Positions 1 to 35,388 are shown, numbered from the stretch's first letter. The stretch is DNA of 40,313 nucleotides from an uncultured Actinomycetota bacterium (GCA_964478985.1 CAYZJW010000003.1:1-40313), one strand, 5' to 3'. Made by a program: numbers and translations. The notes: a model not told the origin generated them from the sequence alone.

Positions 1-366
1 TTTGCATCTTCTCCGGCGCCGGGGCACCCCCCAAAGCAATTGACCACATCTATGCCCATAAGAGATGCAAGCTCTGTTGTAGCCTTAAGGTCATCACTGT
101 GCGCTTTACTGAATCCCTTATCAGGATGAAGAGGATTGCCATGGGCTGAAAGTGCGCTTATCTCTAGCCCATATTTTTTTGCTGTATGTATAAATCTTTT
201 CCTCTTTGCCCTGTCTTTTAAAAATTCCTGCGGGTGGACATGGTATTTGCCAATAACACCGCCGCTGCCTGCTTCCACCGCTTCTACTCCATACTCACTT
301 ATTGCCTTACAGGCTTCTTCCCAGGACCTGTCGCCGTAAAGTGCGGAAAAAACCCCTATTTTCATA
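1..366 (-). CDS. sugar phosphate isomerase/epimerase (xylose-isomerase-like TIM barrel), N-terminal 122 aa only; the gene runs off the left edge
   Basis: Absent from the ORF track because it has no stop in the window. My minus-strand translation from ATG 366-364 (GGGGAGGA about 8 nt upstream) gives MKIGVFSALYGDRSWEEACKAISEYGVEAVEAGSGG...LEISALSAHGNPLHPD...GIDVVNCFGGCPGAGEDA. This is a typical N-terminus for the family. Confidence 0.75.
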
Positions 367-392
367 CCGCTTTCCTCCCCTGCAAATTTTTA

Positions 393-1460
393 TCATTCCA
401 CTACTATCTGGACCTTCATAGGATCATCCACCCTGTTCTTAAGGTCCACTATTGCCTTTTCCGTCTCCTCCAGGGGATAGGTGTGGGTGACCATGCTTTC
501 AACATCCACCAGCCCTTCCTTTATGGCCCTGATAGCTGTAGGCCAGGCCAGCGGTGCCAGCCATGATGACCTTATTTCCTTATCCATGGTATGAAAACTC
601 AGGGCCGGGATCCTGAATACATCATCTTCATTGGGCAGCCCGAAGTGGACAGTTATAGCTGCATTGCCTGTTATCTCCACTGCCAGCTCAAAGGCCTCAT
701 TGGAGCTGGTGGGCACTATGGCCCTCTCAGCCAGCCTTCCGCCGGTAAGATCCGATATGGACTGTTTGAGGTCGCCGGTATAATATGGCGATTTACTGTC
801 ACTTGTATTGAAGATATAGTCCGCCCCTGCCTTCTTTCCCATTTCCAGCCTGAAATCCCTGGTACCTATTAGGGCTACTTTGCCGGCTCCGGTGGATTTT
901 GCCATCTGCACCATCATCTGGCCCATAGGACCGGGTCCGAAGACAGCCACAAAATTTCCTGGCTCTATTTCCAGTTTCTTCATCCCGTATACCACGCAGG
1001 CCAGGGGTTCCGTAAAGGCCCCTGCCGCATAACTCACATCGTCGGGAAGCCTGAACAGCCCCGTATATCTGGATACTGAGTATTCGGCAAATCCTCCATC
1101 GCATGTGACCCCCGGTACATTAAGATTGGCGCAAAGATTGGTCTTTCCCTCTGCGCACAGATAGCAGGAGTTACACTCCTGGACCGGGTTTACTACCACC
1201 CTGTCGCCTTTGGAAAAAAGGCCCAGCTTATCAGGGACACTTCCCACTTCCACTACTTCCCCGGTAAACTCATGACCCAGTACGACCGGTCCCTTGCCTG
1301 TCTCGGTACCAACGGGGCTGAGTCCATAATAATATGATATGTCTGAACCGCAGATCCCTACATTCTTTACTTTTACCAGTACATCTATGTCTGTTACTTC
1401 AGGAATATCTATTTCTTCCAGCTGCATCTTCTGGCTTTCGTAAAATACCTGGGCTTTCAT
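393..1460 (-). CDS. Zn-dependent medium-chain dehydrogenase (sorbitol/threonine dehydrogenase-like polyol dehydrogenase)
   Basis: Motifs GICGSDISYYYG and VLGHEFTGEVVEVG, structural-Zn Cys cluster CNSCYLCAEGKTNLC, Rossmann motif FGPGPMG. I prefer the internal ATG (MKAQVFYES...) to the track start at 1478, where the G-run abuts the codon directly. Confidence 0.9.
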   Translation of the reverse strand: MKAQVFYESQKMQLEEIDIPEVTDIDVLVKVKNVGICGSDISYYYGLSPVGTETGKGPVVLGHEFTGEVVEVGSVPDKLGLFSKGDRVVVNPVQECNSCYLCAEGKTNLCANLNVPGVTCDGGFAEYSVSRYTGLFRLPDDVSYAAGAFTEPLACVVYGMKKLEIEPGNFVAVFGPGPMGQMMVQMAKSTGAGKVALIGTRDFRLEMGKKAGADYIFNTSDSKSPYYTGDLKQSISDLTGGRLAERAIVPTSSNEAFELAVEITGNAAITVHFGLPNEDDVFRIPALSFHTMDKEIRSSWLAPLAWPTAIRAIKEGLVDVESMVTHTYPLEETEKAIVDLKNRVDDPMKVQIVVE

Positions 1461-1500
1461 CTTGCCTTTCACTTTCATCCCCCCTGTAGCTTATAAATTG

Positions 1501-2388
1501 TTAATCCCCGTATTTCTTTATCAGGTCATCAAGATATTTCTTATTAGACTCCGTCACATCCAGGGCCTCCGGCCAGAAGCAGAGATCGATTGGCCACCAT
1601 TGATCATCATATCCGGCTTCTTTTATTGCCGGCATTATCTTTGAAAAATCAAGTATGCCTGTGCCCAGGGGAGCATGGGTGGAAGTGTCGTCATCGTGAA
1701 GGGTCTCATCGGAATCTATAAGGTGAATATGGCCGATCTTGCCTGTAAGCATATGGGCAAACTGTACCACTCCCCCTGGAAGTACTTCCTTTTTACCCAT
1801 CTGCCTGGAACCAAGCACGCCGCACATATGGGCATGACATGAATCAAAAAGTATAGAAAAATTGGGATGATCGACTTTATAGACCATCCTTACCACTTCC
1901 GAGGGTTTGTTCAGTATAAAACCGGGTTCGAATTCCCAGATGAGTTTGACAGAGTACTTGTCACAAAGATCTGCCGCCTTATTCCATACACCGGCTACTT
2001 TATGGAAGAAATCCCCATAATCCATTCCTCCGGGGACTTCCGTGGGCGGATCGACACTGTCTACCCTGAGTTTGGGGCAGTCCAGGGCTTTGCATATCTC
2101 AAGGTTGTCCTTTACTGCATCAAGGTACTGGCTGTCAGGTGATGCCGCCGGTGACGGAAAAGGCGCTGCCAGTCCTGAGACTTCCAGCCCAAAGTAGTCA
2201 AGCTGCTTTTTTACTTCTTTTGCCTTATCCGCTGTCCTGGGTTCTATATGGGGCGGAAAAGCTGCCATCTCTATGCCGTCAAAATCCAGTTCTTTAAGTC
2301 TCTCAAGCACATCTTTTAGGGGAATGGGATCCTCTGAATAGCCGCCCCATATATAGGCCCATCCGCCAATAGAAGTCTTCTTGCTCAT
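1501..2388 (-). CDS. sugar phosphate isomerase/epimerase (xylose-isomerase-like TIM barrel)
   Basis: 295-aa ORF preceded by GGGAGGAAAA. Family-typical pattern LKELDFDGIEM...LIWEFEP...HIHLIDSD (metal-ligand E/D/H/E layout). Confidence 0.85.
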   Translation of the reverse strand: MSKKTSIGGWAYIWGGYSEDPIPLKDVLERLKELDFDGIEMAAFPPHIEPRTADKAKEVKKQLDYFGLEVSGLAAPFPSPAASPDSQYLDAVKDNLEICKALDCPKLRVDSVDPPTEVPGGMDYGDFFHKVAGVWNKAADLCDKYSVKLIWEFEPGFILNKPSEVVRMVYKVDHPNFSILFDSCHAHMCGVLGSRQMGKKEVLPGGVVQFAHMLTGKIGHIHLIDSDETLHDDDTSTHAPLGTGILDFSKIMPAIKEAGYDDQWWPIDLCFWPEALDVTESNKKYLDDLIKKYGD

Positions 2389-2462
2389 TTTTCCTCCCTG
2401 TATAATAGAATAAACAAAAGATATATATAACAGACCAATTTAAAGTTTGGACCTCCTGGATT

Positions 2463-3560
2463 TCAGCAGTTTATACGTTCTTCAGTGTCAGCGTCAAATA
2501 TATGGGCTCTGTCCATATTTATATTTGCGTATACATTCTCCTCCGTCTTTATAAGGGTCTTGGGCGGAGAGACAGCCCGCAGCAGGATATCCTTTGAGAT
2601 ACTCAGGTTGAGTACGTCTTCAGCACCCATGCTCTGGCTGAAATAGACTTTACTCTTTATGGAATTTTCATCCTTTTTCTCCCTGGTCACTTCAACATCC
2701 TCGGGCCTTATGCCAAAAAGGACTTTCTTTTTATCAAGCTTATCCAGCCGGGAGCACTGTTTTTGGCTCAGACAGCATATAATATCGTCTTCTCCTATGA
2801 CAAGCTTATCTTTGTCCACAGCTGCTTCAAAAGTATTTATGCCGGGACTTCCTACAAACCTGGCCACAAAGATGTTCTGGGGCCTTTCATAGATATCTTC
2901 CGGTTTTCCTGTCTGCAGTATCCTGCCTTCGTTCAAGACACCTATCCTGTCAGCCATGGTCATGGCTTCAATCTGGTCATGAGTCACATATATGAAAGTC
3001 TCCTCAAGCTCAAGGTGTATCCTGGCCAGTTCTACCCTCATCTCTTCCCTGAGCTTGGCATCAAGATTGGACAGGGGCTCGTCCATTAGGAACACCCGGG
3101 GGGTCCTGACAATAGCCCTTCCGATCGCCACCCTCTGCATCTCTCCTCCGCTCAAATTAAGTGTGGACCGTTCCAGAAGTTCCCCTATATTAAGTACCCT
3201 GGCCACCCGGTCTATCCTTTTATCTATTTCATCCTGGTCAAAATTTCTCATCCTGGATTTCAGGGGAAATTCAAGGTTCTGCCTTACGGTAAATGTAGGA
3301 TAAAGGGTATAGTACTGGAATACGAATGCCACATCCCTTAGTGCAGGCCCCATGTCGTTCACATTTTCTTTATCAAGAAAAACATCCCCTCTATCCTGTT
3401 TTTCCAGTCCCGCGATAATCCTCAGGGTGGTAGTCTTACCGGCTCCGGTGGGTCCCAGCAGGACAAAAAATTCCCCGTCACTGACTTCCAGGTTCATATC
3501 ATCAACAGCAGTGATCTCACCAAAAGCCCTGGTTATCGAAGCTAGCTTTACATCTGCCAT
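2463..3560 (-). CDS. ABC transporter ATP-binding protein, MalK/UgpC-like (CUT1 type), copy 2
   Basis: Walker A GPTGAGKTT, signature LSGGEMQRV, Walker B FLMDEPLSNLD, H-loop YVTHDQ, C-terminal regulatory (TOBE-like) extension. AGGAG SD. Confidence 0.95.
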   Translation of the reverse strand: MADVKLASITRAFGEITAVDDMNLEVSDGEFFVLLGPTGAGKTTTLRIIAGLEKQDRGDVFLDKENVNDMGPALRDVAFVFQYYTLYPTFTVRQNLEFPLKSRMRNFDQDEIDKRIDRVARVLNIGELLERSTLNLSGGEMQRVAIGRAIVRTPRVFLMDEPLSNLDAKLREEMRVELARIHLELEETFIYVTHDQIEAMTMADRIGVLNEGRILQTGKPEDIYERPQNIFVARFVGSPGINTFEAAVDKDKLVIGEDDIICCLSQKQCSRLDKLDKKKVLFGIRPEDVEVTREKKDENSIKSKVYFSQSMGAEDVLNLSISKDILLRAVSPPKTLIKTEENVYANINMDRAHIFDADTEERINC

Positions 3561-3593
3561 AAATCATTTCTCCTAACTGTGGTCACAAACTGA

Positions 3594-4700
3594 TCAGTTT
3601 TTAATGGATTCTTCAGTCCCGGGATCGAATACCGATACCCTGTCCATGTCAAAATTAAGGTATACCTTGTCATTTATATCCGGTGATACCGTTGATAGTG
3701 TCCTTACCCTTATTTTTTCTGAGCTGTCCAGCACTACGTCGATTATATTATAGGAACCTGTTGCCTCGATAACGTAGACTTTTGTAGTCACATAATCTGC
3801 TTTTTCGGTAAGGGATAATATAACATCCTCGGGTCTGACTCCCAGGATCACCTCTTTGTCCAGGAATCCTTTTGAGGTCATTAATCTCTGCAGTCTTTCA
3901 TTTACTTCCACCGATTGGTCGACAGACAGGATATTAAGGAATACCCTGCCGTCTTTTTTATAGGTTTTGCATTTCATAAAATTCATCCCCGGACTGCCGA
4001 TAAAATTAGCAACAAAAAGGTTATTGGGGTACCTGTATACCTCTGTTGGTGTACCCATCTGCTGAAGCACCCCCACATCCATTATGGCTATCCTGTCACC
4101 CATGGACATGGCTTCGACCTGGTCGTGGGTCACATATACCGTTGTAGCACCCACATCCACATGCAGCTTTTTAAGTTCGACTCTCATCTCTTCCCTGAAT
4201 TTTGCATCAAGGGTGCCTATGGGTTCATCCAGGAGGAATGCCTTGGGCCTTCTGACCAGGGCCCTTCCCAGGGCTACCCTCTGCTGGTCTCCTCCAGACA
4301 GCTCCCGGGGCTTCTTTTTAAGTATATGTCCTATGCGCAGTATCTTTACCGCCCTATCCACTTCCTCTTTTATCCTTTTTCTGGGTACCCTCTGGGTCAA
4401 AAGCGGGAAAGCAATATTATCATAGACATTCATATGGGGGTACAGGGCATAGAGCTGGAAGACAAAGGCTATGTCACGCTGGGAAGCCCTCTTTGTAGTC
4501 ACATCTTCACCATCAATATATATCCTGCCCTCATCAGGGATCTCAAGTCCCGATATACACCTGAGGGTGGTGGTCTTTCCGCAGCCCGACGGGCCCAGAA
4601 GAACCAGGAATTCCTTTTCCTGGATCTTCATATTGAGGTCATTTACAGCAATAGTCTTATCAAACCTTTTGGTGATCTCTTTTAGTATTATTTCTGCCAT
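3594..4700 (-). CDS. ABC transporter ATP-binding protein, MalK/UgpC-like (CUT1 type), copy 1
   Basis: Walker A GPSGCGKTT, signature LSGGDQQRV, Walker B FLLDEPIGTLD, H-loop YVTHDQ, C-terminal extension. GGAG SD. Confidence 0.95.
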   Translation of the reverse strand: MAEIILKEITKRFDKTIAVNDLNMKIQEKEFLVLLGPSGCGKTTTLRCISGLEIPDEGRIYIDGEDVTTKRASQRDIAFVFQLYALYPHMNVYDNIAFPLLTQRVPRKRIKEEVDRAVKILRIGHILKKKPRELSGGDQQRVALGRALVRRPKAFLLDEPIGTLDAKFREEMRVELKKLHVDVGATTVYVTHDQVEAMSMGDRIAIMDVGVLQQMGTPTEVYRYPNNLFVANFIGSPGMNFMKCKTYKKDGRVFLNILSVDQSVEVNERLQRLMTSKGFLDKEVILGVRPEDVILSLTEKADYVTTKVYVIEATGSYNIIDVVLDSSEKIRVRTLSTVSPDINDKVYLNFDMDRVSVFDPGTEESIKN

Positions 4701-4719
4701 TAAAAAAACTCCATTTCCC

Positions 4720-5571
4720 TTATGCTTTAAACAGCTTCTTCAAAAATTTGAGTCCTTTTTCCAGAAGCACCCATTCATTTTCCTCGGTAGACCTCCAGAT
4801 CGATGCTGCCCTGGCTATGATCTCATTATCAGGAGTGAATGTCTCTATTACCAGGTATCCGTCATAATCTATATCATGCAGGGCTTTGGCTATCTCCTGC
4901 CATCTTACCTGGCCGGTGCCCGGGGCTCCCCTGTCGTTCTCATTGGCATGGAAGCTGACCAGCAGGTCTCCCGCCTTTCTTATGGCATCCGCTGAACTTT
5001 TTTCCTCGATATTCATATGAAATGTATCAAGGTGGAGTTTAAGGTTCTTGCTGCCCGCATCACATATAAGTTTGATCGCATCATCTGTGATATTTATAAA
5101 ATCTGTCTCGAAACGGTTAAGAGGCTCCAGCGCCAGGAATACACCTTTTTCCTCGGCATAGCCGCAAACTTCCCTGAGGCTTTCTACCGCCGTCCTCCAC
5201 TGTTTTCTTTTATCTTCCGGGGTCTCCATACCGGTTCTTCCCACTGCCGAGTAAAGGGGTCCGGCCAATATATTGCATTCCAGGGCTTTTGCCGCATCGA
5301 TACCGTCTTTTATATAGGCAATACCATTTTTAACTGCCTGCATATCAGGCCCCCTTATATCCCGGTCCAGGCCCATCATGCCGCATATGCCGGAACATTC
5401 CAGACCGTTTTTCTTTAATTCCTCCAGAGTCCTGCCGTAATCAAAATCTCCTTTATTGGCCAGGGCTATCTCTACCCCGTCAAAACCCAGCTCCCTTATC
5501 TTTCCAAAACGGTCAGTATATTCATCAGTAAAACTGCCGGTAAATATCATAGTATCCAGTCCGAATTTCAT
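4720..5571 (-). CDS. ketose 3-epimerase family protein (D-allulose/D-tagatose 3-epimerase-like TIM barrel)
   Basis: By eye it aligns closely with characterised D-psicose/D-tagatose 3-epimerases. LEPLNRFETDF, KLHLDTFHMNIEE, SFHANENDRGAPGTGQVRW and LVIETF carry the Glu/Asp/His/Glu metal and catalytic residues. AGGAGGG SD. Confidence 0.85.
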   Translation of the reverse strand: MKFGLDTMIFTGSFTDEYTDRFGKIRELGFDGVEIALANKGDFDYGRTLEELKKNGLECSGICGMMGLDRDIRGPDMQAVKNGIAYIKDGIDAAKALECNILAGPLYSAVGRTGMETPEDKRKQWRTAVESLREVCGYAEEKGVFLALEPLNRFETDFINITDDAIKLICDAGSKNLKLHLDTFHMNIEEKSSADAIRKAGDLLVSFHANENDRGAPGTGQVRWQEIAKALHDIDYDGYLVIETFTPDNEIIARAASIWRSTEENEWVLLEKGLKFLKKLFKA

Positions 5572-5585
5572 CTATTACCCTCCTG

Positions 5586-5810
5586 TTATTTTAGATGTAT
5601 GGAAAATATATAGGCTGCAGTACCTGTAAGCAGCACTGCATAACCATAAGTATAAAACACCATAAACCAGGGCTGGCACAGGAAAGCTATCCCCAGGAGC
5701 ATTATCCACATAAAAAGCGGTTCCAGGTACTTTCTTTTTAAGAGTTTCAGCCTCCAGAAGACCAGTCCTATGATAATATAGAATCCTAAAGCTGCTATGA
5801 ATGAATACAT
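5586..5810 (-). CDS. small hydrophobic membrane protein (74 aa, about 3 predicted TM segments), function unknown
   Basis: GGGAG lies 5 nt upstream of the ATG. The gene is wedged between the permease stop (5820) and the epimerase start (5571). Almost entirely hydrophobic: FIAALGFYIIIGLVFW, IMLLGIAFLCQPWFMVF, AVLLTGTAAYIF. Confidence 0.55.
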   Translation of the reverse strand: MYSFIAALGFYIIIGLVFWRLKLLKRKYLEPLFMWIMLLGIAFLCQPWFMVFYTYGYAVLLTGTAAYIFSIHLK

Positions 5811-5819
5811 ATGAACTCC

Positions 5820-6767
5820 CTACTTACGGATTGCTCCAAATGTTATCCCCCTTACCAGGTGGTTTCTCAAGAGTACGGTAAATATCATGGCCGGGATAAG
5901 GAAAAGCAGAGTACCGGCAGCAGCAGCTGCCCAGTCATACCCCAGTACTCCCATCTGGTACGGCAGCCATGCCGGTACCGTCTGTGATACCCTCCTGGAA
6001 AGCACCAGGGCAAAAGCATACTCATTCCAGGCAAATATGAACACAAATACAGCTGTGGCAGCAATACCGGTGGTGGCCTGGGGAAGCACTATCTTCCTGA
6101 AAGCCTGGAACCTGGTATAGCCGTCCACCATTGCCGCTTCTTCATATTCTATTGGTATCTCATCTATAAACCCTTTGAGCACCCATACCGCAAATGAGAC
6201 ATTGAATGCTGTATAAAGAAGGATAAGGGTCAAATGTGAATCTGTCATATTAAAAAACCTGAACATCAGGAATACAGGGATGATGACCACTACCGGCGGA
6301 AGCATCCTGGTGCTTAATATAAAGAACAGGAGATCATCTTTTCCCCTTATCTTGAACCGTGAGAATCCATAAGCGGCAATAGTGCCAAGGATAATGGTAA
6401 GGATGGTGCTGGCAACGGCAATTATAGTACTATTCAGATATCTCCTGGGAAGGTCTCCTATCCTTACGATCCTTTCTCCGGTCTCCTCATAGACTATCCT
6501 CTCATACCATTTCATGTTTTCTATATCTTCTTCTGTGGGCTGGTTTCCTTCTGAATATACTACCCTTGAAGTAAATATCCTTATATATGCCGCAATAGAA
6601 GGCTTAAAGGTAAACGTAGGCGGCACCTTCTGGACATCAGACCAGGATTTAAAAGAAGTGGTTATTACATAAAGCAGCGGCACCATATATACAAAAGTGA
6701 TGACTATTATCAGGAGTATTATCAAATAGCGGCGGATATTTTTTTTCTTTTTTACAACTTCTCCCAT
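5820..6767 (-). CDS. carbohydrate ABC transporter permease (MalG-like)
   Basis: 315 aa, multi-TM, with an EAA-type loop (EYEEAAMVDGYTRFQAFRKIVLP) typical of binding-protein-dependent permeases. Confidence 0.95.
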   Translation of the reverse strand: MGEVVKKKKNIRRYLIILLIIVITFVYMVPLLYVITTSFKSWSDVQKVPPTFTFKPSIAAYIRIFTSRVVYSEGNQPTEEDIENMKWYERIVYEETGERIVRIGDLPRRYLNSTIIAVASTILTIILGTIAAYGFSRFKIRGKDDLLFFILSTRMLPPVVVIIPVFLMFRFFNMTDSHLTLILLYTAFNVSFAVWVLKGFIDEIPIEYEEAAMVDGYTRFQAFRKIVLPQATTGIAATAVFVFIFAWNEYAFALVLSRRVSQTVPAWLPYQMGVLGYDWAAAAAGTLLFLIPAMIFTVLLRNHLVRGITFGAIRK

Positions 6768-6801
6768 ATGCCGTCCTCTCTCAAAGTAGATACATCATTA
6801 A

Positions 6802-7719: not shown

Positions 7720-7756
7720 CTGACTAATTTCCTTCCTGCCTGTCTGGCTTTAAACA

Positions 7757-7783
7757 GCTTCCCCCGCCTGATACGGGGGAAGC
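7757..7783 (-). terminator. GC-rich intercistronic stem-loop between the binding-protein and permease genes (partial terminator or mRNA-stabiliser candidate)
   Basis: Minus strand reads GCTTCCCCCG-tatcagg-CGGGGGAAGC, a perfect 10-bp stem followed by TGTTTAAAG (weak U tract). It lies in the 81-nt gap 7720-7800. Confidence 0.5.
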
Positions 7784-7800
7784 CTATAACCGACTTCTAA

Positions 7801-9261
7801 TTAGAAATCATTAGGATCAAAATCAGGATCATAGTAGCCGTCTTCTTCAAATATCTCGGTCCATATGTCTGTTACTTCCTGAAGGGCATCTTCTGCAGTC
7901 CCTGTGCCCGATATGACATATGCACCCACAACTTCACTGAATGTCCTCAGCATCTCGTCATACTGGGGTACAGCCCACCAGTCCTGGAAAAGTTCAAACG
8001 ATTCCTTCATATTTGGATTATATGGAGCTGCATTCAGGAATTCATCGGAATTCAGCACTGCTTCATGGCAGGTGAATGAACCGGGCAATTGCGCCCATTC
8101 AGCCTGGGTCTCTTCCCTGGCAAACCATTCCAGCCAGGCAAATGCTGCATTCTTTTTCTCCTCCGAGATATAGCTCACAACAGATCCTGCCTGGCCGCCC
8201 AGGGCTGCACTCTGCCTCACCACGCCGTCAACACCCTCCTGGGGAGGACAGGTAAAGTATCCTGTATCACCAGCAAAGGGATTGGTCTCAGGATTTGCCA
8301 GAGCCGGCAGAAAAGCAAAGAAATTGGTGGACATGGGCACTATGCCGCTTATAAAGGCATCATTGGTGGCAACATAGAATGCATCTCCAAACCCGGGAGG
8401 CACAAACCTGTAAAGCTCCCTGTAGTATTCTATTCCGGCCACAGCTCCTTCACTGTTCAGGTAGCCGTCAACCTCAAAAGTCTCAAAATTTCCCAGGTCG
8501 CCGCCATAAACCCTGATAGTCTGTTCTGCTATCATAGCCAGCGAATCATATCCATTATCGCCGTATACGGCAACACCATAGAACTCATTATCAGGATCTT
8601 GGAAGAACTCTGCTATATCCTTTAGCATATCCCATGATTCGGGAACGCCAAGGGCATAGCCGTATTCTGCCTCAAAGGCTGCCATATTGTCAGGATCCTG
8701 GAAAAGGTCCATCCTGTATGCCCAGCCCAGGGCATCGCCTTCTACCGGTACTCCCCAATATCTTTCATATCCCTTGGGATATTCGGAATAGTAGTACATG
8801 GCAGAGGGCAGGAAAGAATCCAGTATGCCTTTTTCCTGAACAAAATCGGTAAGCTCTACAAAATGGCCGTTTATGGCCATATTGCCCACATCCTGGCTGT
8901 CAGCTACTATGATATCCCAGGCATCACTGCCTGCTATCATCTCTACATTATACTTCTGGACAAATGTCTCCCAGGGTGTCTGCTCAACTATAACCTCTAT
9001 ACCGGTCTCGGCAGTAAACCCGGCAGAAAGTGCTTCCAGGTTATCAGCCGGGGCCCACTGGGCCCAGTGGATAGTGATGGAATCAGCCATAGCCATTTCT
9101 TCTGCCTCTTCTTCTGCTGCCTCTTCTTCTTCAGCCTCCTCTTCCATCTCTTCTTCTGCTATTTCTTCTTCCGCAGCTTCCTCCGCCTTGCATCCCGCAC
9201 CATATATGGTAAGAGATACCATAAGCATTGCTGCCAGAAGCCATATGAGTGCTTTTCTCAT
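7801..9261 (-). CDS. ABC transporter extracellular solute-binding lipoprotein (CUT1 sugar-binding family) with poly-Glu tether
   Basis: Signal peptide plus lipobox MRKALIWLLAAMLMVSLTIYGAG|C. A Glu/Ala linker of about 30 aa follows, then a family-1 binding-protein fold of about 420 aa. AAAGGAGGGG SD. Confidence 0.9.
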   Translation of the reverse strand: MRKALIWLLAAMLMVSLTIYGAGCKAEEAAEEEIAEEEMEEEAEEEEAAEEEAEEMAMADSITIHWAQWAPADNLEALSAGFTAETGIEVIVEQTPWETFVQKYNVEMIAGSDAWDIIVADSQDVGNMAINGHFVELTDFVQEKGILDSFLPSAMYYYSEYPKGYERYWGVPVEGDALGWAYRMDLFQDPDNMAAFEAEYGYALGVPESWDMLKDIAEFFQDPDNEFYGVAVYGDNGYDSLAMIAEQTIRVYGGDLGNFETFEVDGYLNSEGAVAGIEYYRELYRFVPPGFGDAFYVATNDAFISGIVPMSTNFFAFLPALANPETNPFAGDTGYFTCPPQEGVDGVVRQSAALGGQAGSVVSYISEEKKNAAFAWLEWFAREETQAEWAQLPGSFTCHEAVLNSDEFLNAAPYNPNMKESFELFQDWWAVPQYDEMLRTFSEVVGAYVISGTGTAEDALQEVTDIWTEIFEEDGYYDPDFDPNDF

Positions 9262-9742
9262 TTTCCCCTCCTTTGAGATTACAAAATGTGATTGAGATCA
9301 CCTGCGATCATCCGGCCTACGCCTGGTGTTTGCATAAACCGGCAGTAATGATGATTTTCTTTCTATAGGACCACCCCCTTTACAATCAGCGCTTTTTCCA
9401 TTTGGCCCTCCTTTTTAAAGTCTAAAAATGGCTAGATCTATCCGGGGATAAAAATAATATTTTAGGAAAACACCTAATAGATGGCCTGTTTTTGCTGGAT
9501 GGATTAAACCAGATTCTACTGAATAAACTGAAGTAGGTTTTGAAGAATATTTTCACAGCTGCAAACATGACCCTCCAGTATGTTTACAAAGCTTCTGTTC
9601 CTGCACCGGGAGCTCCCTGCTGTAATCTTGCCCTGACCGGAATTCCCCTGCTAAACAATAGTATAATACAAAATAATAGTTTTTAAAATACCCGCTATCC
9701 TCTGTGCTGCTGTCTATCACCTGATAATCTGCCTTAAACCTG

Positions 9743-10939
9743 TTAGCAGAGTGGTTTATAAGTTGCATCAACCCACTTCTTCTCCCTGCTGCTCTCAACT
9801 ACTTTTTCCACAAAGTTTATACCCCTGGCTCCATCCTGTACTGTGGGAAAATCAAGATCGAATTCTGATGGTTCTGATCCATTTTTCTTTGCCTTCATAG
9901 TCCTGGCTGCATTTAAATAGATATTTGCCAGAGCCTCTATAAATGCTTCCGGATGGCCGAATGGAAGACGGGAGTTATGCCTTGTGACTTCTTCCAGGTA
10001 ATCATTTCCATGCTTGTATACCTTCTCGGGCTGGTCTTCGTACCTCAGGTAAAGGTAATTGGGGTTTTCCTGGTGCCATTCCATGGAGGCTTCAGTGCCA
10101 TATACCCTGAACCTTAAATTGTTCTCATCCCCCACAGATATCTGGGAGGCAAAGAATATACCCCTGGCCCCGTTCTCAAAGTGGACAAGTACATTGCCGT
10201 CATCATCAAGCACCCTGTCTTTGCCGAAGATGGTGAGATCAGCCATTACCCCGGTTATCTCCAGTCCGGTTATATAGCTGGACATATTCTCCACATGGGT
10301 CCCCAGGTCTCCCATGCAGGAAGATATCCCTGCCTGGGCGGGATCTGTCCTCCAGACTGCCTGCTTGGCGCCATCTTTCTCAATGGTCTTTGTCAGCCAG
10401 CCCTGGGGATACTCTACTACCACTTTGCGTATATCTCCCAGGACTCTGTCAGCTATCATCTTCTTAGCCTGCTTTACCATGGGATATCCGGTGTAGGTAT
10501 ACGTAACAGCAAATACCCTGTCATTTTCTTTTGCTATCCGGCACAGTTCTTCTGCCTCATCCATGGTCCTGGTCATGGGCTTGTCGCATATTATATTTAT
10601 CCCGGCCTCCATCATGGCCCTGGCTGCAGGATGATGCACGTGATTGGGTGTGACTATAGAGGCAAAATCGATCCTCTCTTCCTCCGGAAGAGCCCCTTCT
10701 TTCTCTGCCATCTCCTCATATGATCCGTATACCCTGGAAGGGTCCAGCATCAGTTCCCGGCCCTGGGCCTCTGATTTTTCCGGGGTAGAAGAAAAAGCGC
10801 CTGCGACCAGCTCTATCTCTCCATCCAGTGCAGCTGCTTTCCTGTGGATATCTCCGAAAAATGCTTCCGGTCCTCCGCCCACCATGCCATACCTGATCTT
10901 TTCTGGATTTTCATTGACATCTTTTACTATTCCGACCAT
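9743..10939 (-). CDS. Gfo/Idh/MocA family NAD(P)-dependent sugar dehydrogenase
   Basis: IRYGMVGGGPEAFFGDIHR Rossmann start, ICDKPM motif and family-typical C-terminal alpha/beta domain. Start moved to MVGIVKD (ATG 10939-10937, GGGAGGAG 7-8 nt upstream); the track start at 11005 would overlap the upstream gene. Confidence 0.9.
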   Translation of the reverse strand: MVGIVKDVNENPEKIRYGMVGGGPEAFFGDIHRKAAALDGEIELVAGAFSSTPEKSEAQGRELMLDPSRVYGSYEEMAEKEGALPEEERIDFASIVTPNHVHHPAARAMMEAGINIICDKPMTRTMDEAEELCRIAKENDRVFAVTYTYTGYPMVKQAKKMIADRVLGDIRKVVVEYPQGWLTKTIEKDGAKQAVWRTDPAQAGISSCMGDLGTHVENMSSYITGLEITGVMADLTIFGKDRVLDDDGNVLVHFENGARGIFFASQISVGDENNLRFRVYGTEASMEWHQENPNYLYLRYEDQPEKVYKHGNDYLEEVTRHNSRLPFGHPEAFIEALANIYLNAARTMKAKKNGSEPSEFDLDFPTVQDGARGINFVEKVVESSREKKWVDATYKPLC

Positions 10940-10979
10940 CTTAAATCTCCTCCCTTTATTTCTAAAAAAGACTTCCCTG

Positions 10980-11969
10980 TCATTCATTCTTAAGAGCATC
11001 ATCAAAAGCGCCGGAGGCAGGATTTATATTTATATGCTTTACAAAGTCACATGCTTCAGATGCCCCCCTCATCCTGTCCATCCCCGAGTCCTCCCATTCC
11101 ACAGACAGGGGGCCCTCATAACCTATCTGGTTTAGCTCCCTTATTACTGCTCCGAAATCAACCTGGCCCCTTCCCGGTGAACGGAAGTTCCAGCCCCTCC
11201 TGGTATCACCGAACTCTATGTGGGAACCCAGTATTCCGTTAAGGCCGTCAAGTGTCACCGAGGCATCCTTTATATGCACGTGATATACCCTGTCAGGAAG
11301 AGCTCTTATCATAAGGTGGGGTTTTAATCCCTGCCACAAAAGGTGGCTGGGATCAAAGTTTATGCCCAGTGTCTCTCTGCCTTCAAAAGCATTTAGCAGC
11401 CTTTCAAAGGTATAGTAGTCAAAGGCGATCTCCGTGGGGTGCACCTCAAATGCAAATTTGATATCCATTTTGTCCATCTCATCAAAAAGAGGCGTCCATC
11501 TTTTAACAATGGAGGCAAAACCCTCCTCTATCATCTCTTCTGATGCCGGGGGGAACGAATACCAATAGTTCCATATAGGGGAGCCCAGAAATCCGGTGAT
11601 TATACTGATGTCCAGGTTCTTGGCTGCCGTTATGGTATCCTTTACCTCCTGGACTGCCCATTTCCTCATTGCCTCTTCGTCTCCGGCTACAGCAGAAGGG
11701 GCAAAGCCGTTATGGCGGCTGTCGTAGACATCCCCTACCAGCTGACCGGAAAGGTGGGCTGATATAGCCCAGCTGCCAAGCCCGTGCTTTTTAAGAATGT
11801 CTTTTATTTCCCTGGCATAGGACTTGTCCCGGGCAGCTTTTTGGGCATTTATATGCTTGCCCCAGGTAGCAAGCTCAAGACCCTCATAACCCATCTTTTG
11901 CGCAGAAGCGCACATCTCGTCAAATGGTATGTCAGCAAACTGGCCGGTAAATAGTGTTACTGCTCTCAT
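10980..11969 (-). CDS. sugar phosphate isomerase/epimerase (xylose-isomerase-like TIM barrel), partner of the adjacent dehydrogenase
   Basis: 329 aa: YEGLELATWG...KFAFEVHPTEIAFD...NFDPSHLLWQG...HVHIKD...SVEWED (E/D/H/E ligand pattern). TAGGAGGG SD. Separated by 40 nt from the Gfo/Idh/MocA gene. Confidence 0.85.
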   Translation of the reverse strand: MRAVTLFTGQFADIPFDEMCASAQKMGYEGLELATWGKHINAQKAARDKSYAREIKDILKKHGLGSWAISAHLSGQLVGDVYDSRHNGFAPSAVAGDEEAMRKWAVQEVKDTITAAKNLDISIITGFLGSPIWNYWYSFPPASEEMIEEGFASIVKRWTPLFDEMDKMDIKFAFEVHPTEIAFDYYTFERLLNAFEGRETLGINFDPSHLLWQGLKPHLMIRALPDRVYHVHIKDASVTLDGLNGILGSHIEFGDTRRGWNFRSPGRGQVDFGAVIRELNQIGYEGPLSVEWEDSGMDRMRGASEACDFVKHININPASGAFDDALKNE

Positions 11970-12034
11970 CTTATGACCCTCCTATCATAAAATATTAATA
12001 GTATTATTTTAGCAATAGAAAGTATTGCAGTCTA

Positions 12035-13282
12035 CTATGTGAGCTTGAATTTAAGCCTGCCTTCCTTTTCTCTGACTTCCTTCAATCTCTGTGCTGCTTC
12101 CCTGTTGTGGACAACGCAGCCCACTGCCTTTTGCCTTATGAGAAGTTCTATGCAGTTGTCGCAGGCAATACACCAGTCAATGTCCTCTTGCTGGCCGGAA
12201 AGCAGTTTATTGGGTAAGTATGGATCAGCAAGCGTCTGCCTTCCTATAGCTATCATATCACATACGCCATCATTAATATTCTTATTTCCCCAGTAAGTAA
12301 GTGATTTCTTTTCTCTGGGAACCTTTGGCTGCAGATTATTATCGCCATCCCTGAAAATAGAATATGCCGAGCCGATTACAACAGTTTCCGGGGAGACATT
12401 ATCGCTTACAGTTTTCTGAAAGGTATGATGCAGGTATACCTGGTCTGGTATCCTTCTGTCAGGCTGCGAAAGTGCAAGGGTGATAGAGGGGCATCCAGCT
12501 GAGACAATTATGTAATCTGCTCCTCTTTCTTCAAGTCCTTTTACAAGAGCAATCGGTTCGGTATTATCCATGACTGCCGTATCAGGTCCTGCCGATCCAA
12601 ATCCGCCGGGAAAGCCTTCCCAGAAAGATATCTTTGAGCCAATAATAAATCCGGGATCATCGATCTCCTTTTTCACCCTTTCATAACCTTCAAAGACAAA
12701 CCTGGTGCGGTTCTCAAAAGATCCGCCGTATTTCCACTTTCTGTCATTATACGGCCTGAGCAGCTGGGTGCCCAGATATCCGTGGCAGATCTTAATATCT
12801 ACACCATCCGCACCGCATTCATGAGCAATTTTAGCTCCCAGCACAAATTGGTCCAGGATCATTTCTATGTCTTTTTCACTGAGCAGTTCACCGCCAAAAT
12901 CCGCATGCGGCTTAACCGTGACCCTCTTGGAAAAATCCGGATGGCTTATTTCGCCGGAATGTGTCAATTGCCAGATAAAGACAGCTCTGTCATTTATCTT
13001 TTTCATCTCTTCTGTAAATTTCTTAAGAGCTTTTTCATTTTCAGGCATCACGCTGAGCTGGTTTAGCCTGCCCCGGCTTTCCCTGGTAACAGTTATTGCT
13101 TCCAGGTCTATCAGTCCTGCTCCACCCTCAAAGTATCTGGCATACCTTTCATAAGTCCTTTTTGTCGGATTCCCTTCATCATCGGCATCATTGCATTCCA
13201 TGGCATTCAGGGCTATGCGGTTGGGGGCTGTAAGGTTGCCTATTTTTATAGGAGTTAAGAGTTCTTCTTTTTTATTAGTCAT
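12035..13282 (-). CDS. Old Yellow Enzyme-type NADH:flavin oxidoreductase domain with C-terminal 4Fe-4S motif (FadH/enoate-reductase clade, lacking the NAD(P)H domain)
   Basis: CHGYLGTQLLRPYNDRKWKYGGSFENRTRF matches the OYE core motif. CIACDNCIELLIRQKAVGC is CxxCxxC-x11-C. The protein ends 26 aa later. TAGGAGGG SD. Confidence 0.85.
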   Translation of the reverse strand: MTNKKEELLTPIKIGNLTAPNRIALNAMECNDADDEGNPTKRTYERYARYFEGGAGLIDLEAITVTRESRGRLNQLSVMPENEKALKKFTEEMKKINDRAVFIWQLTHSGEISHPDFSKRVTVKPHADFGGELLSEKDIEMILDQFVLGAKIAHECGADGVDIKICHGYLGTQLLRPYNDRKWKYGGSFENRTRFVFEGYERVKKEIDDPGFIIGSKISFWEGFPGGFGSAGPDTAVMDNTEPIALVKGLEERGADYIIVSAGCPSITLALSQPDRRIPDQVYLHHTFQKTVSDNVSPETVVIGSAYSIFRDGDNNLQPKVPREKKSLTYWGNKNINDGVCDMIAIGRQTLADPYLPNKLLSGQQEDIDWCIACDNCIELLIRQKAVGCVVHNREAAQRLKEVREKEGRLKFKLT

Positions 13283-13400
13283 TTTGACCCTCCTAATAAA
13301 ATCCTGAAGATATATGCTCTTTAATTGTAACAGTATAATAATTTTAGTAAATACAGGGATTTTTCATGATATATTATTATTTGTTTAAATACTTCCCTGA

Positions 13401-14618
13401 TTATTCCCTGTCCGGCATATCCGGATTACTGTCAGGCCCAAAGTATTTCAGCATTACCAGGGGTTCATAACCGGTGTTATGTATAGTCACTCCCTTTACA
13501 GCCGTATCATAAGGCACAAAGAATTCATCTCTGGTAAGATCTCCAAACCTTATCATGGTAGGCGATTCTGCCTGGATATCATTTAGTTCCCCGTGTCCCT
13601 GTATTATCAGCATGCCGTAAGGTCCGGTATCGGTTATGGTTGCTTTTGCCCCTGAATATACAGTAAGCTCCTTGGCAGAGAATGCTTCATCTCCGTCGAT
13701 CCTCCCATATACCACCCATTTTTCCTGATATTTATTGGGAAAGGGGTTATCTATATTTAAGGGGGGAAGGAAAAACCTGGCCTTAAAATCTGATACGGTA
13801 TTGAGCTCCCAGTTAAGGCTTCCGATTATATGATCCAGGTCATCCTTTCTCTCGTCGGCAATATCTTTGGAAAGAAGGGATCTGTCTATAGGTTTTCCCG
13901 AGGGCAGGGATTCAAACATCATATAGACATCTGAAGCCCACTGGGGCTCGAAAGTGCACAGGGACCCGGGCGCATGCAGGATGCCGGGAGGGATCAGCCA
14001 GCCGGTCCCCAGCTCCAGCCTGTATGCCCTGCTGAGATCCAGTATCTTATTGTCGCCCCTGTCGAATGCGGCCAGGCATTTTTTAAGGTCATCTTTGCTG
14101 GTGCCGGGTTCCAGTCCGAAAAAGGTATAAGGAAATGAATCTGGCTGGAAATTATACTGGGCAGGGAAATAATATGCCTCTGGCTTGCCTTCAGCCCCTA
14201 TCTGCCGGGCATAATCATGGTCCACATGGACATGATGAGGCAGGGGCTCCATATTGTCAAAAAACTTGGCAAATATCTTCCAGCCTCCCCATTTTGACAT
14301 TATGCTATGGCCCAGTATATCGGTGCCTTCTTCCTCTATCAGGGTCTTTAAAAGCATTTTTTCTTTGCCTGCTACTGCATATGAGAGACCTTCGTCTTCA
14401 GGTGTGCCGGGACCATTATCGGCCCGGATCGTAGAAGCAAACCATCTTTCATCTATTCCCCCTCTATGGGCGCCCAGGGCAAACAGATCATCAGGATGCA
14501 GTCTCAGCCTTCTTCCCGGGATACAGAAGGACCTGGGGACCCATGAGGGCGCCAGGTGCAAAAGCCCGTTATTGAGCTCCAGTGCATTATTCAAGAATTT
14601 TTTAGTTTCCTTGCTCAT
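13401..14618 (-). CDS. cupin-fold protein resembling class I phosphomannose isomerase (aldose-ketose isomerase candidate)
   Basis: 405 aa. LPHHVHVDH, GKPEAYYF and PGILHAPGSLCTFEPQWASDV resemble the PMI type I metal and active-site motifs (HKPE..., HAY..G...E...SDN). The assignment is by eye only. AGGAG SD. Confidence 0.6.
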   Translation of the reverse strand: MSKETKKFLNNALELNNGLLHLAPSWVPRSFCIPGRRLRLHPDDLFALGAHRGGIDERWFASTIRADNGPGTPEDEGLSYAVAGKEKMLLKTLIEEEGTDILGHSIMSKWGGWKIFAKFFDNMEPLPHHVHVDHDYARQIGAEGKPEAYYFPAQYNFQPDSFPYTFFGLEPGTSKDDLKKCLAAFDRGDNKILDLSRAYRLELGTGWLIPPGILHAPGSLCTFEPQWASDVYMMFESLPSGKPIDRSLLSKDIADERKDDLDHIIGSLNWELNTVSDFKARFFLPPLNIDNPFPNKYQEKWVVYGRIDGDEAFSAKELTVYSGAKATITDTGPYGMLIIQGHGELNDIQAESPTMIRFGDLTRDEFFVPYDTAVKGVTIHNTGYEPLVMLKYFGPDSNPDMPDRE

Positions 14619-15436: not shown

Positions 15437-15508
15437 TTATATTTTTGGGAAATCTCTGCTAATAATATATAATCTTTATATATTGATAATAATTTATGGA
15501 GGTTTGTT

Positions 15509-15709
15509 ATGCCTAAGAAGGATTTTTTGATCAGCCAGTTTAAAGGCCAGATTGACGACTGGGATGACCAGATATATAAATTGACATGTGACATAAAAGA
15601 GACTGCTGATGAAAGTGTAAAGATCCAGTGCCGTGAAAAAATAGAAGATCTTGAATCAAAAAGATCGAAAGCAATGGATGAGATAGAAAAATTAGAACAG
15701 CAGCAATAG
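15509..15709 (+). CDS. small coiled-coil protein (66 aa), function unknown
   Basis: GGAGG lies 7 nt upstream of the ATG. Charged heptad-like sequence; no recognisable family. Confidence 0.5.
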   Translation: MPKKDFLISQFKGQIDDWDDQIYKLTCDIKETADESVKIQCREKIEDLESKRSKAMDEIEKLEQQQ

Positions 15710-15713
15710 AACA

Positions 15714-16080
<367 letters not shown>

Positions 16081-35261: not shown

Positions 35262-35388
35262 ATCTCCTCCCCGTCTCACGGCTATATTAATACTTTTATA
35301 TAATCATATAAGAACCAGCAAAAATCCTACTGTCTGCCGCTTATTTAAAAAACCGGCATATCCTGAAGCATTAAAGAAGTTTTGAACC

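Follow-up and report, generated by a model that had tools for sequence, protein, structure and literature searches.

Sugar-enzyme genes around an ABC importer in an uncultured anaerobic bacterium form two modules that recur across phyla

Gene clusters that combine dehydrogenases of the Gfo/Idh/MocA (Gfo) or MDR families with xylose-isomerase-like TIM barrels have yielded routes for levoglucosan, for the non-hydrolytic breakdown of glycosides and C-glycosides, for the epimerisation of gulosides and for inositol in Thermotoga. We analyzed a locus that brings such enzymes together with an OYE-family flavoenzyme and a phosphomannose isomerase (PMI)-fold cupin around an ATP-binding cassette (ABC) importer, in the genome of an uncultured anaerobic bacterium of the Actinomycetota (GCA_964478985.1). 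The window, i.e., the stretch of DNA that was analyzed, is the whole contig CAYZJW010000003.1 (40,313 bp), and the locus occupies positions 1-14618 of its minus strand, the left edge of the locus being the end of the contig. The locus is a juxtaposition of two reusable modules that recur across phyla, together or apart. The cluster is uncharacterised, is tied to keto-sugar chemistry and is not demonstrably an eliminase route. The reading that we favour, with a probability of roughly 45%, is that it would funnel a polyol, a cyclitol or a rare sugar into phosphorylated ketoses by redox, epimerisation and isomerisation steps.

Genes were identified with Pfam domain profiles, NCBIfam models with their curated equivalog cut-offs and sequence searches of the PDB, and the folds of two proteins (cupin405 and TIM295) were assigned by searching their AlphaFold models with Foldseek. 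The operon of Agrobacterium tumefaciens encoding GlycDH, Gfo, AtOGE and AtHYD shares with our locus, as do the Lgd (levoglucosan), Dgp/Car (C-glycosides) and BT/AL (Bacteroides/Alistipes) clusters, the placing of Gfo genes beside TIM barrels and a chemistry of keto-sugars. However, only a homologue of the hydratase is common to both sides. Orthologues of the C3-dehydrogenases and eliminases of these 3-keto systems are missing from the locus, and the systems in turn lack its MDR dehydrogenase, OYE/Fe-S enzyme, PMI-fold cupin, ketose 3-epimerase-like and xylose-isomerase-like barrels, and PfkB and XylB kinases. The ycjM-V genes of Escherichia coli also resemble the locus in having an MDR dehydrogenase (YcjQ, a D-guloside 3-dehydrogenase), a TIM-barrel epimerase (YcjR, a 4-epimerase) and a Gfo protein (YcjS, a D-glucoside 3-dehydrogenase) in the operon of a CUT1 importer (YcjNOPV). 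BLASTP gave 26% identity between YcjQ and MDR361, 29.8% between YcjR and TIM283 and 23% between YcjS and Gfo370 (54-88 bits), and we rejected orthology at these identities of 23-30%. The phosphorylases and the beta-phosphoglucomutase of ycjM-V are not in the locus, which has three or four more TIM barrels, the OYE enzyme, the cupin and the PfkB kinase.

The IolR regulon of Thermotoga maritima reportedly comprises the Gfo protein IolG, the MDR protein IolM, IolN, IolO and the CUT1 importer InoEFGK. Its likeness to the locus extends to the CUT1 importer, a Gfo, an MDR, a TIM-barrel epimerase and, in relatives of the locus, a ROK regulator. The scores of the locus proteins are nevertheless below the cut-offs for IolM (MDR361, 193 bits vs 450), IolO (TIM283, 140 vs 300) and IolG (Gfo370, 64 vs 355), none of the TIM barrels matches the IolN model of NCBIfam, and the kinases are of the fructokinase and xylulokinase types. 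We rejected membership of the Lgd, Dgp, BT and Iol equivalogs, all scores being below the cut-offs, as well as a Bacillus-type iol operon, since the locus has no thiamine diphosphate enzyme, KduI/IolB cupin, aldolase or methylmalonate semialdehyde (MMSA) dehydrogenase. Polyol and rare-sugar ("Izumoring") enzyme sets, and polyol operons that end in a fructokinase or a xylulokinase, contain the same enzyme classes as the locus, but the classical polyol schemes have no role for two Gfo proteins, TIM295, TIM320, TIM329 and the OYE enzyme. None of the compared systems has the OYE/Fe-S enzyme or the PMI-fold cupin. In the literature searched, we found no description of this enzyme combination, nor of an OYE enzyme in 3-keto or anhydro-sugar pathways.

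Two modules that recur across phyla

Module A (positions 1-9261, continuing past the left edge) holds the importer, made of a lipoprotein, two permeases, a protein of 74 amino acids (aa) and two ATPases, together with TIM283, the pair of TIM295 and MDR361, TIM320, TIM366, a PfkB kinase and Gfo370. Its relatives also carry a cupin. Module B (9743-14618) consists in the window of cupin405, OYE415, TIM329 and Gfo398, and its core is the OYE enzyme, a barrel resembling the hydratase AtHYD (HYD-like) and a dehydrogenase. We compared two sets of loci. One was anchored on OYE415 and has 80 loci from species-representative genomes (56-73% identity), neighbourhoods being counted over the 50 loci that extend 3 kb or more to either side. 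The other was anchored on TIM295 in metagenome contigs and was counted over 29 loci of at least 12 kb. Kinases and aldolases were counted over 28 module-A-related loci, and high-GC loci were mapped by tblastn. The homologues are mostly named as metagenome-assembled genomes (MAGs) of Actinomycetota or of "Ca. Humimicrobiaceae".

Seen from TIM295, the gene of the MDR dehydrogenase is adjacent in 28 of the 29 loci, and TIM283 is present in 23, a Gfo in 21 and Gfo370 in 19. A cupin of the same family, 32-37% identical and with the same invariant residues, occurs in 19 loci and the importer genes in 17-20, followed by TIM366 (16), TIM320 (13), TIM329 (8) and OYE (3). The recurrent order is binding protein, permeases 1 and 2, the 74-aa protein in some cases, TIM320, Gfo, TIM283, ATPases 1 and 2, cupin, TIM295, MDR, TIM366 and Gfo370, and these are often followed by one or two FGGY kinases, another xylose-isomerase-like barrel and a PfkB kinase. 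This gene set and order recur in dozens of independent contigs, an arrangement that is far beyond chance.

Seen from OYE415, a HYD-like barrel accompanied by an MDR or a Gfo dehydrogenase lies within 3.5 kb in 23 of the 50 loci, and neither is found in 21. Matches of the TIM329 type lie within 2.5 kb of the OYE gene in 32 cases out of 40, and those to the transporter and to TIM283 are mostly more than 5 kb away. The OYE415 loci come from Actinomycetota, Spirochaetota, Chloroflexota, Thermotogota, Bacillota, Planctomycetota and MAGs labelled Myxococcota, the protein keeping 56-73% identity over six or more phyla. The two modules adjoin each other, in the same order and on the same strand, in several spirochaete and other loci (L036, L054, L157 and L037), are close to each other and separated by regulators in another (L175), and in one locus (L024) the cupin heads module B. 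In Bacillota, genes for a CUT2 (monosaccharide-type) ABC system, a DeoR regulator and a PfkB kinase, as well as another TIM-Gfo pair, surround a TIM-MDR-OYE unit, and the locus of Pleomorphochaeta adds LacI, GntR, FGGY and GatZ/KbaZ genes. More generally, PfkB or FGGY kinases are also found in Bacillota and spirochaete versions of the OYE loci. The OYE gene also occurs alone, behind PAS-LuxR or two-component regulators. The TIM329-Gfo pair has unrelated surroundings on plasmids of Deinococcus and Cryobacterium, the plasmid contexts of TIM329 being generic, and a plasmid search with OYE415 gave one distant match. As a separate observation, the OYE-TIM-MDR cluster of Clostridium sp. BSD9I1 encodes a PHP-domain protein between the CUT2 permease and the TIM-Gfo pair (L076, 15093-15956). 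This protein might contribute a step absent from the window, as a phosphatase or as another metal hydrolase.

Within our locus, the gap of 481 nucleotides (nt) between the modules is a module boundary and, judging from the relatives, probably also a regulatory one. A ROK regulator gene (407-411 aa) is found at this place, between Gfo398 and the binding protein, in the relatives L094 (1665-2900) and L095 (1773-2996), whose shared proteins have 85-93% amino acid identity to those of the window. We rejected a pseudogenised remnant of this gene in the gap, since the window bears no trace of it; only about 180 nt beside the binding-protein gene are conserved (75%) with L094. This relative further encodes a SorC-type regulator (15099-16043) as well as an additional xylose-isomerase-like barrel between its PfkB and Gfo370 genes, and the lineage of the window has neither. 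The absence of a regulator is thus true for this copy and not for the system, i.e., it is lineage-specific, and expression in the population represented by the window may be constitutive or controlled by a distant regulator. Outside the locus, the window carries housekeeping genes, with no sugar-related-looking transcription factor among its proteins. No Rfam riboswitch was identified in the locus, nor any Rfam element in the 481-nt gap, and promoter and terminator scans did not define operon boundaries, no terminator-like site being found between genes.

The part of the locus beyond the left edge is visible in four longer contigs (L001-L004) that are 99.6-99.7% identical to the window over 11,478 overlapping nt. 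There, the gene string goes on with the rest of TIM320, then TIM366 (366 aa), the PfkB kinase (328 aa) and Gfo370 (370 aa), beyond which lie genes of an ABC exporter and of toxin-antitoxin systems, unrelated to the locus. With the fructokinase model the kinase scores 241 bits (cut-off 450), with IolC_N 220 bits (cut-off 300), and in the relative L094 its gene is only 8 nt from that of a xylose-isomerase-like barrel. FGGY/XylB kinases are present in 16 of the 28 related loci and a class II aldolase in only 3. The window itself encodes XylB at a distance of 19 kb from the locus, among NikR, methyltransferase and SbcCD-like genes. This is the sole protein that reaches a curated orthologue threshold, which no locus enzyme does, and it is 61-66% identical to the FGGY kinase found directly downstream of module A in L106, L111-L113, L115 and L140. 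These sequence comparisons suggest that in this genome the XylB kinase became detached from the cluster.

These results bear on several claims of the original prediction, which was made from the window alone. The gene set that it singled out does recur and is no one-off, and the locus continues past the left edge, as it stated. The locus, which it read as one route, is not an indivisible unit, since OYE is found in only 3 of the 29 TIM295 loci and alone elsewhere, and since the gap is a module boundary. The lack of a kinase, aldolase or regulator that it noted was not confirmed for the locus as such. The PfkB gene in the near-identical assemblies makes the missing kinase an artefact of the window edge, and relatives have ROK and SorC regulators. 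With a PfkB kinase in the same gene string and FGGY/XylB kinases in more than half of the related loci, the phosphorylation-independent route that had been proposed is contradicted.

Enzymes and importer of the locus

The TIM barrel of module B, TIM329, matches the "2-hydroxy-3-keto-glucal hydratase" 8ro4 over its full length (residues 7-327 to 10-335, 183 bits, E 9.1e-53) and SCO6571 (2zds) with 338 bits. The 8ro4 enzyme is AtHYD of the A. tumefaciens GlycDH/Gfo/AtOGE/AtHYD operon (PMC10628242). By homology, TIM329 thus belongs with the AtHYD-type hydratases. Judged from its sequence, it is a true homologue, and the link to 3-keto-sugar chemistry appears to be real. IolE is the only NCBIfam match of TIM329 (59 bits) and of TIM320 (44 bits), with a cut-off of 290. 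TIM320, which is 25.7% identical to TIM329, weakly matches SCO6571 (63 bits) and AtHYD (34 bits). The ketose 3-epimerase-like barrel, TIM283, scores 191 bits with the PsicseEpim model of NCBIfam (cut-off 300), 110-142 bits with structures of D-tagatose, D-psicose and L-ribulose 3-epimerases, 82 bits with TM0416 and 70 bits with YcjR; hence, it is below the cut-off for D-psicose 3-epimerase and yet a clear homologue of the solved D-tagatose and D-psicose 3-epimerases. In PDB and NCBIfam searches, TIM366 proved distantly related to xylose and rhamnose isomerases. The fifth barrel, TIM295, is an orphan. Its sequence matches in the PDB are all at most 25 bits, including a local one to AtOGE (8BVK, 19.7 bits, E 0.004), and its 2106 homologues all bear generic names. 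Its AlphaFold model (pLDDT 86.5) matches IolI, SCO6571, ketose 3-epimerases, AsbF and IolE equally in Foldseek, the top match being IolI, and 8BVK is not among the top 50. We rejected a subfamily assignment from this search, since it does not discriminate between TIM-barrel subfamilies. A recent duplication of the barrels was also rejected, the five being at most 26-30% identical to one another.

Among the dehydrogenases, MDR361 is closest to the ketose reductase 1e3j (157 bits) and to sorbitol, xylitol and arabinitol dehydrogenases (107-137 bits), followed by 3ip1 (94 bits), which we take to be the IolM-type enzyme of T. maritima. Its best NCBIfam model is IolM. Gfo398 matches the structural-genomics oxidoreductase 3v5n with 387 bits and 7d5m/7d5n and 3dty with 249-258 bits, but the levoglucosan dehydrogenase 6a3f with only 96 bits and DgpA (7xr9) with 31 bits. 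With the LevoglcsnDh model (cut-off 650), Gfo398 scores 112 bits and Gfo370 66 bits. The scores of the Gfo proteins with the BT_2158 and BT_2159 families (26-30 bits) are equally remote from the cut-offs of 650-750. There is no GMC oxidoreductase in the locus. PDB and domain searches of the locus proteins found no orthologue of a beta-eliminase of the AtOGE, LgdB1, DgpBC/CarBC or DUF1080 type. Of the oxidation-elimination-hydration chemistry that the original prediction brought in, the hydratase part therefore stands through TIM329 and a recognisable eliminase is lacking. Its view of the route as undescribed agrees with the profile and PDB searches, where none of the enzymes reaches an equivalog threshold or has a characterised close relative, and a characterised cluster with the same composition was found neither in NCBIfam nor in the PDB nor in the literature searched.

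OYE415 has a best PDB match of only 77 bits and NCBIfam scores of 100-136 bits against cut-offs of 425-825 (106 vs 825 for BaiCD, 101 vs 750 for the long bilirubin reductase), and its homologues are annotated as "2,4-dienoyl-CoA reductase" in databases. It shares an N-terminal flavin mononucleotide (FMN) TIM barrel (PF00724) and a four-cysteine motif with the group of FadH, BaiCD, bilirubin reductase, 2-naphthoyl-CoA reductase and TMADH. The motif, C371-x2-C374-x2-C377-x11-C389, has invariant C371, C377 and C389; K164, H167 and Y169 are invariant as well, and the H-G-Y active-site triplet is conserved. In contrast to the OYE/TMADH/dienoyl-CoA reductases, which are proteins of about 640-730 aa with C-terminal FAD/NAD(P)H domains, OYE415 has only about 25 residues beyond the final motif cysteine (homologues are 410-415 aa long) and therefore lacks such a domain. 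The contexts also differ, being related to sugars for OYE415 and to acyl-CoA, bile acids or bilins for the known group. Position 374 is a cysteine in 21 of 25 homologues and an aspartate in 4, and the cluster of the latter might be Asp-ligated or of the [3Fe-4S] type. Close homologues in relatives of the Actinomycetota type (67-83% identity; L089, L090, L175 and L176) are usually preceded by a PAS-LuxR (GerE) regulator, or by a GAF histidine kinase and a GerE response regulator, which suggests that the OYE/Fe-S gene can be an independently regulated unit. Neither type of regulator is present in the window. We rejected the 405-aa open reading frame (ORF) that follows the OYE gene in L176 as a candidate for the cupin.

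The cupin itself, cupin405, has no sequence match in Pfam, NCBIfam or the PDB, up to E=10. Among 27 divergent members of its family, none has a Pfam match, PMI_typeI_cat appearing once at E 0.23. At 50% identity, the family falls into about 2100 clusters (2103), mostly named "hypothetical protein". Searched with Foldseek, the AlphaFold model (pLDDT 76, pTM 0.80) has type I PMIs as all of its top 17 matches (E 3e-13 to 4e-9, TM 0.5-0.7; for the best of them, E 3e-13 to 1e-11 and TM 0.55-0.72), and it has the bicupin fold of the type I PMIs of Bacillus subtilis (1qwr) and Salmonella typhimurium (3h1w). The family has invariant E57, K118, H129, H131, K145, E147, H215 and E224, and H129, H131, E147 and H215 are invariant in 45/45 and 27/27 sequences. 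Hence, cupin405 is predicted to be a bicupin with a metal-binding (Q/H)-x-H, E, H set, the ligands being proposed from their spacing. The spacings K-x12-H, K-x-E and H-x8-E parallel the residues K86/H99, K132/E134 and H255/E264 that were mutated in the S. typhimurium enzyme, a mapping by spacing only. No equivalent of R274, another residue mutated in that series, is evident 10 residues after E224 of the cupin. This arginine presumably binds phosphate. A non-phosphorylated substrate is therefore possible for cupin405. As a side observation from L006, L007 and L008, two cupin paralogues occur on one 127-kb contig, one of them after genes for transketolase, transaldolase, RpiB and a SorC-type regulator. 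Such neighbours hint that some members of the family may work with sugar phosphates.

The importer has the composition of a CUT1 system, with an SBP_bac_1/8 protein, two BPD_transp_1 permeases and MalK-type ATPases with OB/TOBE domains. It has two different ATPase genes instead of the usual one, and the TIM283 gene is inserted between the permease and ATPase genes. The two ATPases are 41.5% identical to each other and the pair is conserved across loci; both the pair and the TIM283 insertion are conserved in the Spirochaetota, Chloroflexota and Actinomycetota versions. This conservation suggests that the ATPase of the importer is heterodimeric. A 74-aa ORF stands at the matching position in more than 15 loci, with up to 64% identity outside close relatives, and is a called gene in L001-L005 and L175. 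Such positional conservation makes it a real gene. The product belongs to no Pfam family and may be an unrecognised small membrane subunit of the transporter.

Proposed function and competing readings

We infer the class of substrate, the order of the steps and the direction of the OYE reaction from the gene content, homologies, modularity and kinases described above. In the funnel, the importer would take up a neutral, monosaccharide-sized polyol, cyclitol or rare sugar, which the NAD(P)-dependent MDR and Gfo enzymes would oxidise to keto-sugars. The metal-dependent TIM barrels would epimerise, isomerise, hydrate or dehydrate the keto-sugars, the cupin and the xylose-isomerase-like barrel would interconvert aldoses and ketoses, and the products would exit as fructose-type ketoses (xylulose-type in relatives) to be phosphorylated by the PfkB and XylB kinases. 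Module B would act on a 3-keto/enone branch, on which the dehydrogenase would make or remove the ketone, the HYD-like barrel would add or remove water across the enone, and the OYE/Fe-S enzyme would reduce or form the C=C bond with an external electron partner. The enzyme kit argues for this reading, as it is that of polyol and rare-sugar chemistry (MDR361, TIM283, TIM366 and the cupin with its H-x-H...K-x-E...H...E residues). So do the module-B-type clusters of other phyla, which use CUT2 transporters, DeoR, LacI or GntR regulators, PfkB or FGGY kinases and GatZ. The kinases of the gene string and of related loci, the recurrence of the two modules and the homology of TIM329 to AtHYD speak for it as well. 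Several points weigh against it. No locus enzyme reaches a curated equivalog cut-off, and every specific activity is therefore deduced from distant relatives. The PfkB kinase is relatively nearer to the cut-off of IolC (220/300) than to that of fructokinase (241/450). The binding protein has no informative relative, the best PDB match being 5iai (62.7 bits), with YcjN at 33.6 bits. The OYE enzyme and the 405-aa cupin subfamily occur in unrelated contexts too, so their role in the locus is not certain. Finally, a Gfo protein paired with a TIM barrel is just as typical of inositol routes and of the 3-keto routes for glycosides and levoglucosan.

Within this frame, the trio of an OYE/[4Fe-4S] enzyme, a HYD-like barrel and a Gfo or MDR dehydrogenase might be an undescribed module of anaerobes for flavin/Fe-S chemistry at C=C bonds of keto-sugars. 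It might reduce the enone that arises when a 3-keto sugar undergoes dehydration or beta-elimination, with reductive deoxygenation as the outcome and a role as an electron sink, or it might desaturate beside a ketone as BaiCD does, in which case hydration and oxygen-independent opening of ether-locked sugars such as 1,5-anhydroalditols would become possible. The PMI-fold bicupin, from a family that lacks a Pfam model, would then represent a new class of aldose-ketose isomerases acting on free sugars and feeding the kinases. Taken as a whole, with either direction of the OYE enzyme and with the isomerase, we regard this proposal as rather doubtful.

The locus could instead degrade a glycoside or an anhydro-sugar without hydrolysis, by oxidation, elimination, hydration and reduction of the levoglucosan/3-keto type, the freed hexose being phosphorylated. 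The full-length homology of TIM329 to 8ro4 and the Gfo gene 40 nt away fit such a route, as do the known operons with a Gfo and two TIM barrels (PMC10628242; bioRxiv 2024.03.25.586180), the CUT1 type of the importer, which often carries glycosides, and the GH4 genes, encoding enzymes with 3-keto intermediates, that lie near some relatives. Levoglucosan dehydrogenase is also the best NCBIfam match of both Gfo proteins; however, their scores are far short of the cut-off, that with DgpA is lower still, and the locus has neither an eliminase orthologue nor a C-glycoside deglycosidase or DUF1080 protein. Moreover, the OYE-TIM-dehydrogenase module is paired with CUT2 transporters of the monosaccharide type in other phyla, and the route would give no role to the ketose epimerase, the xylose-isomerase-like barrel, the polyol-dehydrogenase-like MDR and XylB. 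In its phosphorylation-independent form, it is contradicted by the kinases. We consider this explanation unlikely. A variant pathway for cyclitols of the inositol type appears quite improbable. There, a Gfo would oxidise an inositol isomer to an inosose, the IolM-like MDR and its partner TIM barrel would carry out an oxidation and open the ring, or a TIM barrel would dehydrate the inosose as IolE does, the IolO-like barrel would epimerise the product, the cupin would serve as the IolB isomerase and the IolC-like PfkB kinase would phosphorylate a keto-deoxy acid. This would agree with IolM as the best model of MDR361, with the IolO and TM0416 matches of TIM283, with IolE as the only NCBIfam match of TIM329 and TIM320, with the IolC_N and IolG scores of the PfkB kinase and Gfo370, and with IolI as the top Foldseek match of TIM295. 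A ROK regulator lies upstream of the CUT1 importer in relatives, and the iol regulon of T. maritima is said to be organised likewise, with a ROK regulator and a CUT1 importer. Yet all Iol models stay below their cut-offs, and IolN, IolD, IolB (PF04962), IolJ and IolA are missing from the locus. MDR361 scores higher on sorbitol and ketose reductases than on 3ip1, the xylose-isomerase-like barrels and the XylB linkage seen in relatives favour pentuloses or hexuloses over uronates, and the class II aldolase is present in just 3 of the 28 loci.

It may also be that there is no single pathway, and that the cupin, the OYE enzyme, the TIM329-Gfo398 pair, the importer with TIM295-MDR, and the PfkB-Gfo370 pair are adjacent, independently regulated units with differing substrates, the OYE enzyme being a general enone or detoxification reductase. 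The counts from the TIM295 side are in line with this, OYE being within 10 kb in 3 of the 29 loci and TIM329 in 8, and so are the solitary OYE homologues behind their own regulators, the close cupin homologues that lie beside transketolase, transaldolase and RpiB or elsewhere, the TIM329-Gfo pairs of the Deinococcus and Cryobacterium plasmids, and the regulator gene that relatives have at the gap. Against it, the association of the OYE enzyme with a HYD-like barrel and a dehydrogenase (23/50 loci, at least six phyla) or with TIM329-type barrels (32/40) is recurrent, the two modules are contiguous and co-oriented in L036, L054, L157 and L037, and a cupin of the same family is inside module A in 19 of the 29 loci and heads module B in L024. 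In the window, the genes are co-oriented, with gaps of at most 118 nt within the modules and no terminator-like sites. We thus give little credence to such independence and retain the funnel from polyols, cyclitols or rare sugars to phosphorylated ketoses as the preferred reading.

The cluster is common in uncultured sediment anaerobes of the Actinomycetota, Spirochaetota, Chloroflexota, Thermotogota and Bacillota. The identity of its substrate would annotate thousands of genes now named "sugar phosphate isomerase/epimerase", "hypothetical protein" or "2,4-dienoyl-CoA reductase", and an oxygen-independent way of handling keto- or anhydro-sugars might emerge. The OYE-TIM-dehydrogenase trio, the TIM295-MDR pair and the Pfam-less cupin form the target set for experiments, and the module map shows which partners to co-express.

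Gene inventory and surroundings

The locus has 14 co-oriented genes, namely 13 large minus-strand ORFs and the conserved 74-aa ORF (Table 1), with intergenic distances of 9-118 nt outside the gap between the modules. This agrees with the original prediction, including its only break in the gene string, given there as 480 nt and here as 481 nt. The four TIM barrels that it listed all belong to PF01261, and three have the boundaries given in the table; the one placed at 1-366 was one base out of frame. The Gfo gene lies 40 nt behind that of TIM329, as stated, if the ATG at 10939 is used, and the same start is called in other assemblies. The MDR Zn-dehydrogenase with its domains and the OYE/Fe-S flavoenzyme, with the cysteine motif and without an NAD(P)H domain, were recovered as described. 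The PMI-type cupin was also borne out, the protein having no sequence match but a model that is nearest to type I PMIs (E about 1e-13).

Table 1. Positions in the window of the locus features and of the xylulokinase gene
Feature	Position	Strand	Evidence or remark
TIM320, N-terminal 121 aa (of 320), xylose-isomerase-like TIM barrel	3..365	-	PF01261 32.7 bits; cut by contig end
MDR361, MDR Zn-dependent dehydrogenase, polyol-dehydrogenase/IolM-like	393..1478	-	ADH_N + ADH_zinc_N
TIM295, orphan xylose-isomerase-like TIM barrel, obligate partner of MDR361	1501..2388	-	PF01261
MalK-type ABC ATPase 2, 365 aa	2463..3560	-	ABC_tran + OB_MalK
MalK-type ABC ATPase 1, 368 aa	3594..4700	-	ABC_tran + OB_MalK + TOBE_2
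TIM283, ketose 3-epimerase-like TIM barrel	4720..5571	-	PF01261; NCBIfam and PDB matches
Hydrophobic small protein after permease 2, 74 aa	5586..5810	-	Positional conservation
ABC permease 2, 315 aa	5820..6767	-	BPD_transp_1
ABC permease 1, 305 aa	6802..7719	-	BPD_transp_1
CUT1-type solute-binding lipoprotein, 486 aa, acidic Glu-rich linker	7801..9261	-	SBP_bac_1 + SBP_bac_8
Intergenic gap, 481 nt, boundary of modules B and A	9262..9742		ROK gene here in relatives
Gfo398, Gfo/Idh/MocA dehydrogenase	9743..10939	-	Three GFO_IDH_MocA domains
TIM329, TIM barrel homologous to 2-hydroxy-3-keto-glucal hydratase	10980..11969	-	8ro4 and SCO6571 matches
OYE415, OYE-family FMN/[4Fe-4S] enzyme, 415 aa	12035..13282	-	PF00724 113 bits, cut-off 27
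cupin405, PMI-fold bicupin, 405 aa	13401..14618	-	AlphaFold/Foldseek; no Pfam model
XylB, xylulokinase, 19 kb from the locus	33735..35279	-	TIGR01312 553 bits, cut-off 380

The upstream border of the locus is marked by PlsY, encoded on the opposite strand (14768-15436), and by a bacterial class A RNase P RNA (15713-16079, minus strand, 302 bits). Two ORFs that overlap this RNA (15283-15783 and 15540-15845) are probably spurious. Further along the window, there is a tRNA at 24102-24175 on the minus strand. Two PolX-like genes (DNA polymerase beta thumb and PHP domains) lie 2 kb apart, at 27639-29399 on the minus strand and 31310-33031 on the plus strand. They flank genes for a protein-isoaspartate methyltransferase and a DUF763 protein, then comes an HhH-GPD glycosylase, and the whole looks like a small island for DNA and protein repair. 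Finally, a minus-strand gene at 20386-23475 encodes a 1029-aa fusion of a GlcD-like FAD-linked oxidase with a 4Fe-4S dicluster domain and two CCG domains, i.e., a dehydrogenase of the GlcD-GlpC/LutA type in a single chain.

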